Shown: positions 30,001 through 33,000 of the stretch, piece after piece | How positions within the stretch are numbered: the stretch's first letter is position 1 | How the letters are laid out: each line of letters begins with the position of its first letter | Assembly (NCBI GenBank): GCA_963833985.1 | Contig: CAWIAD010000002.1 | Location: 5,984,001-6,048,000 of the forward strand | Origin: an uncultured Planctomycetaceae bacterium | Lineage (GTDB): Bacteria > Planctomycetota > Planctomycetia > Isosphaerales > Isosphaeraceae | Length of the DNA: 64,000 bases | Direction: 5' to 3' | Position numbers: made by a program

Positions 30001-33000
30001 TCCCTACCAGGACTTGCCCCCCGACGAATCGGCTCCGGTTGGACCGGCCGATCCGGCCCCCGAACCGGCGGCGTCACGTGGAGAACGCCCTTGAGCTTCG
30101 CCTATCCCTGGCTGTGCTGGCCTTGCTCGCGGTGCCGCTCCTGCTTCTGGGCTGGGTCTGGAAGCGGACGGGCGGCGGAGTGGCCCTGCCGTTTGACCAC
30201 GGCGGCAACAGACCACGGGACGGGGCTGGGCGATCGTGCTCAAGCTGGCCGACTCACTGCCTGCTCTGGTCCTGGCCCTGGTGATCGTGCTCCTGGCCGG
30301 GCCGCAGCAGCTGAGCGCACCCACGGACCAGGCGCGTGCTCACCAATATCGAATTCTGCGTCGACGTCTCGAGCAGCATGAACACGCCGCTTGGCGACGG
30401 CACGCGCTACGACGCATCGATGAAGGCGATCGATGAGTTCCTGAAGATCCGACAAGGGCGACGCGTTCGGATTGACCTTCTTCGGCAATAACGTGATCCA
30501 CTGGGTTCCGCTGACGAGCGATCCCTCCGCGGTCCGCTGTGCTCCGCCGTTCATGAAGCCCGAGAACGTGCCGATGTGGATGGCCGGCACCATGATCGGC
30601 AAGGCGCTGCTGGCCTGCAAGGAAATCCTCACCAGCCGCGAGGAGGGGGACCGGATGATCATCCTGGTCTCCGACGGCGACAGCTTCGATCTCTCCGGCG
30701 GCAACGACGAGGCCGTTGCGCAGACGCTCCGGCAGAACAACATCACGGTCTACGCGATTCATATCTCCGCCGGCGACATCCCCGGCGAGATCGCCAACGA
30801 TCACCGGCCTGACCGGCGGCGAGGTCTTCCCCGTGGACGACCCGCAGTCGCTCCAGGCGGTCTTCCGGCGGATCGATGCCATGAAGCGCGACCCGGCTCG
30901 AGAAGACGGCGTCGGAGCTACTCGACGACTTCGCTCCCTTCTGCATGGCCGGGCTGGTCCTCCTCGGGCTGACCGGCCTGACCCTCTTCGGGCTGAGGTA
31001 CACGCCATGGTGAGCCAGTCTGCCGTGTCTCCCACGAGCTGGCCGCGGCCGCCATGGCGCTGCTTGCGGCCATGGCCGAACTGCTGCACGCGCGCCGCTG
31101 CCGTCGACTTGCCCGTCTGGCCTTCGGCCCAGACCATCGGCCCGCGCCCTGGGCGCGCCTGGCCCCGGTACTGCGCGTGCTGGCGATGACCGCGCTGGCC
31201 TGGGGTCTGGTGACGCTGCTGGAGCTTCCGCCCAAGATGCATGTTGCCGAGACCGTGCCCGATAACGAGCGCCGGCACGTCTTGATCGTGCTCGACGTCT
31301 CGCCCAGCATGCGTCTGAAGGACGCCGGCCCGAACGCCGACCAGGCCGGATGAAGCGCGCGGCCGACGTCATGGAATCGTTCCTTCAGCGGATCCCGGTG
31401 GAGCTGTACCTGGTCTCGGTCGTGGCCTGCTACAACGGCGCCAAGCCCGTCGTGGTCGACACAAAGGACCTGGAAGTGGTCCGCAACATCTTCGGCGACC
31501 TGCCCATGCATTATGCCTTTCCGGCCGGCAAGACCGATCTATTCTCGGGCCTGGCGGAAGCCGTCAGGATCGCCCAGCCCTGGCAGCCGAAGAGCACCCT
31601 GCTCTTGCTGCTCTCTGACGGCGACACCGTGCCCGCGACCGGCATGCCCAGGATGCCCGCCTCGATCGCCGACGTGCTGATCGTGGGCGTGGGCGACCCC
31701 CGCAGGGCACGTTCATCGACGGCAGGATGTCGCGGCAAGATCGCAATCGACCCTGCGCCAGATCGCCGCCCGGCTGGGCGGCATCTATCACGACGGCAAC
31801 GCCAAGCACCTCGGTACCGCAGCTCCTGGGCCGTCTGACCATGATCCCCCGCAAGAGCGCCTTCGAGCGGCTGACCCGCCGCGAATACGCCCTCATGGCA
31901 TGCGGCTGCGGTGCGCTGGTGCTGGCTTTCTTGCCCCTTCTACTCCACTACCACGGCACGCGCTGGAAGCCGGGAGTGCATGCCACCGGCCGAACGGCAA
32001 CACGCCGCCAACGCCAGCGCGGCCACCAGGTGTCAGCCCTGCACCCGCAGGCATCGCCATCGGCCGCACTTCAGCGGATTTGAGTATCCGCTGGAATGGG
32101 AAAACGCTACTTTTGTAAGAGACACTTCCCGAAGGCCGGCAGCCCGGGTGAGTCAATGGTGGATCCACTGAGCTGAAAGGGGACTCCATGAGAACTTTCG
32201 GACTTCTCGCCTGGCTGATGATTCCCGTTCTGGCCGGGGCTTACCACTACGGGCCCGGCCAGGAAAAGCTCCGGCTTGACGATGTTTCCCGGCTGCTCGC
32301 CGAGGCCGACACGCTCGCGGCCCACGAGAAGTGGTCCGAGGCATCCTCGCGGTATGAGAAGGCACTGGCTCTGTTGCCTCCCGGCCGGCTTGACGAGGCG
32401 CGGTGGGTGCGCCTGCAAAGAGCCAAGGTGCAGATGTTCGACCGGCAGTTGCCGGAGGCGACCGCTGCGCTCAAGGAACTGGCCGATCAACTGGAAGCGG
32501 ACAGGTCGGCTGACCCGAAACTCCGCGACGACGTTCATGCGGCTCTGGCGAATTCCCAGTATTACATGACCTGGCTGATGCGTCTGGAAGGTCTCGGCGC
32601 GGCGGACTGGGAGCCCGAGATCGAGAATTCCCGCCAGACCTTCCGCATGCTCGCCGAGCAGGCGGAGGCGCGCGGTGAAACCGTCGCGGCCACCAAGCAT
32701 CGCAAGGACCTGGAAAGCACGATCCGGCTGTCGCGGATGGACCTGGCCCAGCTTCAGGGGTTAGACCTGCCCAGGCAGTGACAGGGCTGCAAGAGCGGCC
32801 AGTCTGGCCGCGGCAATGGCAAGGGTAAGGGTAAGTCGAAGAGCTCCTCCAAAGACAAGGACGCCCGGGGCGCTGGGGCCGGCCCGCCACCCGATGATTC
32901 AGGATCGTGAGCGAGCCGATCAGGACAGGAAATCCTCACGGAGCACGAGGGGACGGGCCGCTCCACGCAACGCGTGGCGCTGCCCCTGGGCTCCGCGAGC

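Follow-up and report, generated by a model that had tools for sequence, protein, structure and literature searches.

An in-frame UGA at codon 198 of a gene in the window, the whole 64,000-nucleotide stretch of planctomycete DNA that was analysed, is very probably read as selenocysteine (Sec) through a SelB-type SECIS hairpin located 20 nt downstream. On comparative sequence grounds, the product would be a 240-aa member of an uncatalogued, exported TPR-like family from Planctomycetota and Verrucomicrobiota, with Sec the commonest state among the sampled loci. Taken whole, including recoding, evolutionary history and function, the explanation presented here is considered likely. The uninterrupted open reading frame spans 32188-32781 and stops at TGA codon 198 (32779-32781); read as Sec, it gains 42 codons and closes at the TGA at 32908-32910. 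The gene comprises the following elements:

32188..32910, + strand: complete selenoprotein gene with a TPR-like product of 240 aa, including Sec198 (translation, tail conservation, AF2 model, fold search)
32188..32262, + strand: residues 1-25, an export signal or a membrane anchor in which W9, P13, H20, G22 and G24 hardly vary (alignment column counts)
32260..32760, + strand: TPR-like helical domain, residues about 25-191 (pLDDT 87-98; VIA match; Pfam TPR_2)
32779..32781, + strand: in-frame UGA predicted to be read as selenocysteine, the U of U-Q-G-C (aligned to the orthologue Cys; selA co-occurrence)
32788..32790, + strand: Cys201, second residue of UxxC (UxxC in 142 of 195 distinct TGA loci among the matches listed)
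32795..32811, + strand: predicted bacterial SECIS, 7-bp stem with a GUC loop at 32802-32804, overlapping Ser206, which stands in place of the third Cys (geometry; comparison of TGA loci)
32812..32910, + strand: disordered tail rich in Lys and Gly, with conserved KDARGA...GPPPDxSGS at its end (pLDDT about 50; last residue still conserved)

A preliminary description of this DNA had reported the TGA-cut frame, the hairpin and the retained 42-codon tail, all of which are present in the sequence, and had proposed a UxxC selenoprotein with an in-ORF SECIS, a proposal that comparative evidence supports. The tail is retained in 214 of 215 TGA loci among the matches listed, with a search pattern that itself stopped at the TGA, and an independent assembly encodes a 99% identical protein ending at the same codon. 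The genome carries selA, selB, selD and tRNA-Sec genes.

The hairpin, GCGGCCA-GTC-TGGCCGC, has a GUC loop, a 7-bp stem and a 20-nt UGA-to-loop distance, which agree with the criteria for a bacterial SECIS, matches the geometry of the FdhA and Prx-like SECIS elements of the same genome, and lies in a 41-nt stretch that folds at -16.5 kcal/mol. Folding energy alone is not significant (z -0.4 to -1.5), so that the support for the hairpin is comparative. Under a rule defined only after the TGA loci had been inspected, a GTC-loop hairpin follows the codon in 188 of 195 TGA loci but in none of 39 Cys loci among the matches listed, and a comparable hairpin follows 1068 of the 267,067 TGA triplets of this genome (0.4%), which gives the chance level. 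The stem pairs vary among G-C, C-G, A-U, U-A and G-U over 97 distinct hairpins, and in 40 of the 42 loci with two Sec among the matches listed the loop lies 18-22 nt past the second UGA. The chance pattern matches L090 and L267 were left out, as were exact duplicates from the hairpin and motif counts. The orthologue motif had been given as CxxC-x3-C; the alignment shows CxxC-x4-C. The further idea that a Cys-to-Ser change builds the hairpin stands in part, since this change provides the loop, but the 3' arm additionally requires a Lys-Lys to Gly-Arg replacement.

The distribution of the family gives a different picture at different depths. A search of 121 genomes returned 43 matches at E<=1e-3, 37 of these at E<1e-50, the number reported before; the 30 loci fetched divide, as before, into 27 with TGC or TGT and three with TGA (G000, G009 and G011 in the present labelling), and the remaining seven all encode Cys, placing TGA in 3 of 37 loci. 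With a search pattern derived from this gene's own subfamily, most loci across Planctomycetota proved to carry TGA, which turned up in Verrucomicrobiota as well: it was found in 96 of 119 GTDB loci and in at least 119 metagenome loci (both among the matches listed), and in 47 of 68 carriers of a phylum sample, these 47 genomes belonging to eight families, with 34 of them within two, and thus not being independent. With Sec-decoding genomes scored by selA alone, the gene is present in all 47 TGA carriers of the phylum sample but in 4 of the 21 carriers without TGA (genomes >=90% complete; baseline 271 of 401), and in 91 of 96 TGA versus 14 of 23 non-TGA GTDB loci among the matches listed, where genome completeness is unknown. 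The presence of selA in all three TGA genomes, pointed out earlier, is correct but does not discriminate within the family, as 86 of the 121 genomes have the gene, including 25 of 34 Cys carriers. A plasmid search gave no match, and a search for longer or fused forms gave one weak match among 8000 scored candidates.

The protein had been called secreted, which is borne out in part: at its N-terminus, with A at position 18 in 50 and H20 in all of 58 aligned members, a cleaved signal and an uncleaved anchor both fit. The best VIA match of the following domain is the TPR domain of LGN (Z 15.5, rmsd 3.3, 146 aligned), and the top rows are mostly TPR domains, which shows fold and not function because Z values near 13-15 are common among helical repeats. 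Weak Pfam TPR_2 matches occur in 9 of 58 members, the PDB sequence search with the family profile gave weak TPR matches only, and Foldseek with the query gave no match at E<=0.001. Neither the query nor any of the 58 aligned members matches the curated selenoprotein models (NCBIfam June 2026), in agreement with the earlier statement that no NCBIfam family exists. In the AF2 model every helix ends 5' of the Sec codon, leaving the motif on a disordered arm; a thioredoxin-fold UxxC oxidoreductase does not fit this all-helical model, the position of the motif at the opening of the disordered tail, or the lack of a Trx Pfam match.

The Sec gene is the sixth of a conserved seven-gene unit, whose order, as previously described, is upheld in orthologous loci. 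MxaK is a TPR protein, and the Sec gene occupies the BatC/MxaK slot of this MoxR-DUF58-VWA-VWA operon, the other members of which are:

27200..28203, + strand: MoxR AAA+ ATPase, frameshifted in the assembly (Pfam AAA_3; tblastn)
28325..29188, + strand: DUF58 protein (tblastn with a DUF58 orthologue)
29191..30030, + strand: conserved single-TM membrane protein with no assigned family, end approximate (one weak DUF4381 match in an orthologue)
30100..31013, + strand: BatA-like VWA membrane protein, frameshifted, start approximate (orthologue comparison)
31010..32083, + strand: BatB-like VWA membrane protein, frameshifted, ends approximate (orthologue comparison)
33015..36899, + strand: 1294-aa exported protein in the BatD position, with a C-terminal TM and a helical solenoid followed by beta-sandwich domains (AF2 model of an orthologue core; hydropathy)

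Of 74 loci that extend far enough, 70 have the Sec gene followed by the large exported protein; 20 orthologue cores gave no Pfam BatD match, and fold and sequence searches with this protein gave nothing clear. Frameshifts are dense in the upstream genes, with at least seven in about 5 kb versus eight in 59 kb elsewhere (88 queries), so that in this strain the operon may be undergoing decay. The 80 long loci disclosed no convincing case of a further TGA-plus-hairpin gene.

As to function, a tentative proposal, to which we give close to an even chance, is that the protein hands off metal. The TPR domain would dock on the periplasmic face of the MoxR/VWA machine, probably onto the 1300-aa protein, and the flexible Sec/Cys arm would bind a soft metal ion, e.g. 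Cu(I), and then pass it on, in the way that the Mxa MoxR/VWA proteins deliver Ca2+; with selenium two ligands would be enough, while Cys versions have at least three. Considered in favour of this role are (i) the variable ligand spacing on the disordered arm, including UxxC, UxxxU, Ux5U, UxxU, CU and single U; (ii) the Se/S counts, with exactly two such residues in 182 of 195 Sec loci and at least three Cys in 39 of 39 Cys loci among the matches listed; (iii) the absence of a thioredoxin fold; and (iv) the gene content of the operon, which resembles that of the Ca2+-loading mxaRSACKL set. Against it stand the family members with neither Cys nor Sec in the motif, which indicate that the arm is dispensable in places, the lack of conserved Cys in the large partner, and the absence of any metal-related gene from the recurrent neighbours. 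UxxC is classically a redox motif, which also counts against a metal role. Complex prediction, in which the core of the 1300-aa protein was paired with a homologue of the Cys form, scored 0.00 and gave no verdict.

The same selenoprotein could instead act in redox chemistry, its arm forming a diselenide or selenenylsulfide and serving as a reductant or switch that would reduce or sense periplasmic disulfides, for instance in the BatA-like VWA protein, a possible though somewhat doubtful role. The prevalence of UxxC among TGA loci speaks for it, three Cys conserved in >90% of 44 aligned BatA-like rows provide a candidate target, and it fits a proposal, recounted in PMC3557215, that Bat complexes provide periplasmic reducing power. 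However, Leptospira bat deletions showed no oxidative-stress phenotype, the motif is unstructured and lies outside any Trx fold, its spacing varies, the Cys forms carry three or four Cys rather than a plain CxxC, and no reductase or DsbD-type gene recurs nearby.

Sec has probably arisen at least three times in the family, in the main short-tail lineages, in a distant CU group, and in a genus-level lineage derived from a Cys allele, with exchange of the 3' cassette by recombination. Mosaic alleles found in the family suggest that this cassette may be swapped. The local Cys-to-Sec switch of the preliminary description is borne out: in a quick tree the local Sec lineage is nested inside Cys clades, a topology with all Sec forms on one side is rejected (p-AU 0.028), and the 21 nt 3' of the codon match a Cys allele exactly. 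The lineage spans about 77-85% identity; 22 of the best 120 database matches end at the codon, and of the 22 rows taken as local Sec forms 20 are known solely as proteins ending there. All trees are quick or FastTree runs without near-duplicates at 92% identity and the frameshifted L021, L022 and L032, and because their backbone is weak, gain and loss in the main clade are both possible.

An unlikely alternative to construction in place is import of the local TGA and SECIS by recombination from a Gemmataceae-type Sec allele. Six loci (L180, L188, L105, L256, L154 and L102) carry this triloop hairpin together with the motif U..C.SGRSGR, and the mosaic alleles point to exchange of cassettes; yet the local Cys type is seen both in the codons 5' of the UGA and in the tail 3' of the hairpin, the 21 nt noted above match a local Cys allele, and G009 retains the KPG that follows in Cys alleles. 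A bolder composite, rather speculative and less probable still, would equip a Bat-type MoxR/VWA machine with a metal-handling arm tipped by selenium, giving the Bat operon a chemical function, with Sec and Cys states as interchangeable, recombining 3' cassettes and the local SECIS born by one template switch, in which 8 nt copied in inverted orientation from the preceding codons would have replaced 5 nt, creating the in-frame GUC-loop hairpin and removing the third Cys simultaneously.

That a recent, early-stage switch confined to three genomes is the whole story, as first described, is very improbable. The 3 of 37 loci in the 121-genome search and the position of the local lineage among Cys forms, apart from other Sec rows, agree with it, but the TGA majority across Planctomycetota, its occurrence in Verrucomicrobiota and the diversity of the local lineage contradict it, and no Cys-plus-hairpin intermediate appears in the 39 Cys loci or among stored proteins. 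The three-genome version is refuted at the family level, and the separate local origin alone survives.

A true stop, by nonsense mutation or sequencing error, with a 197-aa product, is hardly credible: indel-type errors or decay close by in the assembly, helices that all finish ahead of the codon, and the Cys-free relatives would suit it, but the 47 phylum-sample carriers have always TGA and never TAA or TAG, selA is present in all of them, the tail is conserved up to its final residue, and the hairpin occurs strictly with TGA and shifts with the position of a second UGA. Genome-wide reassignment of TGA to Trp or Gly, with the in-frame TGA itself as its sole support, is refuted by tRNA content, tRNA-Sec being the only tRNA with a TCA anticodon, and by orthologue alignment, in which the codon faces Cys and the gene terminates at TGA where orthologues terminate.

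Compared to known in-ORF-SECIS genes, namely FdhA, Prx-like and SelD (consensus in PMC13188914, section 5), the gene shares a UGA on a Cys position, a G-first loop of 3-4 nt, a 7-bp stem, a 20-nt spacer and the sel genes, but here Sec sits on the disordered tail of a TPR-like adaptor instead of in an enzyme fold. In most selenoprotein families Cys homologues are commoner than Sec forms (PMC1794560), whereas Sec is the majority state in the present samples. The likeness to the Bat operon lies in the ordered succession of MoxR, two VWA membrane proteins with Leptospira BatA/BatB as best NCBIfam models, a TPR protein in the BatC position and a large exported protein; nevertheless, the BatA/BatB scores fall far under the cut-offs of these Leptospira-specific models (61-73 vs 380; 19-30 vs 350), and the large protein lacks a Pfam BatD match. 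MxaRSACKL, which loads Ca2+ into methanol dehydrogenase (PMC12276312), likewise combines a MoxR ATPase with VWA proteins and with accessory proteins that serve a client in the periplasm; the present loci contain no mxaF/I client, no enzyme recurs as a neighbour in 80 of them, and a Sec/Cys arm would point to a soft metal instead of Ca2+. The SAO selenoproteins with CU/CC metal-binding motifs (bioRxiv 10.1101/2022.07.06.499078) resemble this family in that Sec is suggested to bind metal in exported or transport proteins, in a CU motif and in database genes truncated at UGA, but their folds and operon are unrelated, and their hosts are Clostridia and other anaerobes instead of Planctomycetota and Verrucomicrobiota.

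Literature searches found no description of the present family, nor a selenoprotein reported in the Bat literature, and Table 1 of PMC13188914 (2026, 119 families), compared by name and motif only, holds no TPR, Bat, VWA or MoxR-linked entry; one unnamed 2016 supplementary candidate (PMC4807772 Table S9, IMG genes 2643311185/6) could be a member. The finding adds a common selenoprotein family, truncated in databases, of an unusual kind, an exported TPR adaptor with a flexible Sec tail. It places a reactive Se/S group in a Bat-type MoxR/VWA operon, a protein-assembly cluster of elusive function, so that redox and metal handling become testable by changing one or two codons. It also offers a natural series for the evolution of bacterial Sec recoding: Sec has probably originated three times or more, a lone hairpin seems to serve two UGAs, the SECIS is traded off against the third Cys, and alleles appear to be swapped inside one genus-level group.

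On comparison with its relatives, the Sec gene of the source genome very probably belongs to a real and widespread selenoprotein family residing in a Bat-type operon, with the gene order MoxR, DUF58, membrane protein, VWA, VWA, the Sec gene in sixth place, and a 1300-aa protein. The features of the window comprise:

24327-26875 (+): two overlapping ORFs, apparently a single gene of DUF1559 type broken by a frameshift
27200-32083: upstream genes of the operon, with frameshifts in moxR and both VWA genes
30100-31013: BatA-like VWA protein
32188-32910 (+): Sec gene; the short reading starts at 32188, with 197 codons before the TGA at 32779-32781
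32242-32262: region of His20 of the Sec protein
32795-32811 (+): SECIS hairpin GCGGCCA-GTC-TGGCCGC, loop 20 bases after the UGA
33015-36899 (+): large gene (1300-aa protein)
36954-39572 (-): 872-aa ORF immediately past the operon and oriented against it, without Pfam match

Read as Sec, the UGA is followed by 42 further codons to a terminal TGA, the predicted product comprising 240 aa with U-Q-G-C at 198-201. In an independent assembly, a protein of 99% identity likewise stops at the in-frame UGA. The hairpin fits the bacterial SECIS consensus in section 5 of PMC13188914; its folding energy is not unusual compared with shuffles (z -0.4 to -1.5), and a comparable hairpin (7 bp, GTC loop) follows 1068 of the 267,067 TGA triplets of the genome (0.4%). 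The source genome encodes selA, selB, selD, itself carrying an in-frame TGA, and tRNA-Sec, and its FdhA and Prx-like genes display 7-bp GTC-loop hairpins 19-21 nt past the UGA, the geometry of the Sec gene. The Prx/redoxin-like selenoprotein (W-U-P-F-C, 7-bp GTC-loop SECIS) is encoded outside the window at G000:C2:4615473 (- strand; G000, source genome; C2, contig), FdhA with a SECIS of the same type at C2:4474173, and the SelD hairpin has a GTT loop.

The comparative evidence for recoding includes (i) a conserved tail, with G-x-stop 35-50 codons past the TGA in 214 of 215 TGA loci, duplicates included, the remaining one ending at a contig edge; (ii) a hairpin with a GTC loop and a stem of 4 bp or more, a rule defined after the TGA loci had been seen, in 188/195 TGA loci versus 0/39 Cys loci, duplicates removed; and (iii) stem pairs that vary among G-C, C-G, A-U, U-A, and G-U over 97 distinct hairpins. 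The seven TGA loci failing the rule show shorter stems or variant loops. A second UGA occurs in 42 loci (UxxxU, Ux5U, UxxU, UxxCU, UxxCxxU). In 40 of these, the spacer between UGA and loop measures 18-22 nt for the second UGA and 27-39 nt for the first, so that a single hairpin appears to serve both. Loci L157, L160, L214, and L233, among others, are such two-Sec variants with one hairpin spaced to the second UGA.

Of 121 genomes searched for the family, 43 gave a match, 37 of them a strong one; the strong-match loci carry TGA in three (G000 and the comparison genomes G009 and G011) and Cys in 34, so that the counts of the preliminary description stand. The Sec form extends far beyond these three genomes. 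Twenty-two of the best 120 protein matches end exactly at the UGA codon, and a metagenome search by DNA pattern, comprising upstream codons and TGA only, disclosed at least 119 loci, one further chance match being set aside. The same upstream pattern with a final TGA, TGC, or TGT gave, among the GTDB matches listed, 96 TGA loci, 23 Cys loci, and one chance match, titled mostly Planctomycetota (Pirellulaceae, Gemmataceae, Planctomycetaceae, Phycisphaerae) and Verrucomicrobiota. Two loci titled Paracoccaceae and Enterobacteriaceae (L165, L207) cluster with planctomycete and verrucomicrobial sequences, their titles being probably unreliable. In an evenly drawn phylum sample of 401 genomes, 68 carry the family and 47 of these, over eight families, have TGA within the match. 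The selA gene is present in 47/47 TGA carriers, related and thus non-independent genomes (34 from two families), versus 4/21 carriers without TGA, one of the four weak, against a baseline of 271/401; among the GTDB pattern loci listed, it accompanies 91/96 TGA and 14/23 Cys loci.

The family is uncatalogued: NCBIfam has no family for the query or 58 members, the 119 entries of Table 1 of PMC13188914, compared by name and motif only, name no TPR, Bat, or MoxR-linked protein, and literature searches outside subscription papers found no description. Among the Sec candidates of Table S9 of PMC4807772 is an unnamed "hypothetical" one from planctomycete P1 that has its Cys homologue in Rhodopirellula sallentina; this candidate may be a member. 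The supplements of PMC12013277, PMC3557215, PMC12276312, PMC1794560, and bioRxiv 10.1101/2022.07.06.499078 may hold further candidates.

In a FastTree inferred for about 290 rows from the sequence upstream of the codon, 23 Sec/Cys changes are needed. A genus-level gain of Sec in the source lineage, separate from the others, is supported, as first proposed, because this lineage is nested within several layers of the local family that hold Cys forms only (SH-aLRT 96, 88, 95, 93, 92, in a quick tree with a weak backbone), a 40-row topology test rejects all Sec rows on one side (p-AU 0.028), and the 21 nt past the UGA codon are identical to a local Cys allele. The same test is compatible with a single origin of the local Sec lineage (p-AU 0.25). 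This lineage covers about 77-85% identity and is not nascent, contrary to the early stage claimed. The Cys motif is spaced CxxC-x4-C instead of CxxC-x3-C, and the Cys-to-Ser change held to form the hairpin contributes to it, but the 3' arm also requires Lys-Lys to Gly-Arg. Template-switch mutagenesis, a known mutation mechanism, could have generated the local SECIS in one step, since exchanging 5 nt for an inverted copy of 8 nt would give the hairpin in frame, and G009 retains the KPG that comes next. Import of TGA and SECIS by recombination from a Gemmataceae-type allele, which carries the same triloop, is the rival reading, judged less likely.

A C-U motif with a GTT-loop hairpin occurs in L299-L306 (family f45), members of a distant long-tail subfamily in the same operon (8 of the 15 loci of the family inspected). 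Joining this group with the short-tail subfamily is disfavored (p-AU 0.039), and its Sec probably represents a separate, third origin. Five Cys proteins are mosaics of a Sec-lineage body and a Cys-type last helix and tail: residues 5-172 are 87-97% identical to a Sec-type relative, and residues 173-197 are 64-72% identical to it and 92-96% to Cys alleles, in a comparison where 20/22 Sec-type rows are known solely as proteins ending at the codon. The mosaics form two groups from several sources (P0004, P0006, P0300 versus P0043; P0007, P0012 versus P0056), which points to exchange of the 3' cassette between alleles by recombination. L202 (sister of the Sec locus L058), L241, and P0121 are Cys forms with a Gly-Arg-Gly-like remnant at the SECIS place of Sec forms; all three are probable Sec-to-Cys reversions.

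Among 80 loci, MoxR is found in 43/52 with room, an adjacent VWA in 59/70, and the large gene in 70/74, usually retained where the upstream part is absent; no other neighbor recurs in more than five, and no further selenoprotein gene recurs upstream of the operon. The VWA proteins score far below cut-off against the BatA and BatB models of Leptospira, and the 1300-aa protein is modeled as a helical solenoid with beta-sandwich domains, its orthologue alignment displaying no conserved Cys. The moxR and VWA genes contain at least seven frameshifts in about 5 kb, a rate about ten times that of sampled orthologues (8 in 59 kb), reflecting either assembly error or operon decay; G009 is frameshifted at other positions, the upstream genes of comparison genomes G001 and G002 are intact, and so are the Sec and large genes of the source assembly. 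Ten more MoxR paralogues are spread over both contigs of the source genome.

In the AF2 model, residues 2-191 are all-helical and confidently predicted, with TPR domains as top structural matches (Z 15.5), and the tail is disordered from about 200. BatC and MxaK are TPR proteins. The hydrophobic N-terminus carries Ala18 in 50/58 rows, as in a cleavable signal, but also near-invariant Trp9, Pro13, and His20, as in a functional anchor; in either case, the domain is inferred to face the periplasm. If cleavage follows Ala18, His20 would be mature residue 2, by the chemistry of N-terminal His a possible candidate metal site; the C-U group has Trp at this position. Exactly two Se/S residues, variably spaced, occur in 182/195 Sec loci, and three or four Cys in 39/39 Cys loci; the absence of the third Cys in Sec forms may simply be the coding constraint of the hairpin. 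The motif region lacks Cys in distant members P0135, P0139, P0166, P0174, P0201, P0243, and P0263, several with acidic or Gly/Gln-rich tails.

A redox role of the Sec/Cys arm is a somewhat less likely reading: UxxC is the commonest motif among Sec forms, three Cys of the BatA-like protein are conserved in more than 90% of orthologues, and Bat was once proposed as a source of periplasmic reducing power, a proposal to which the Leptospira mutants gave no support (PMC3557215). One conserved Cys of the BatA-like protein directly precedes the metal-binding DxSxS motif. A soft-metal site is favored over a thioredoxin-type catalyst because the arm is flexible and its ligand spacing variable. According to published work, MoxR/VWA sets act as metal-insertion machines, and one of them, MxaRSACKL, which loads Ca2+, offers an analogue (PMC12276312). 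We propose, tentatively and at somewhat less than even confidence, that the Sec/Cys arm would capture a soft metal and then pass it on.
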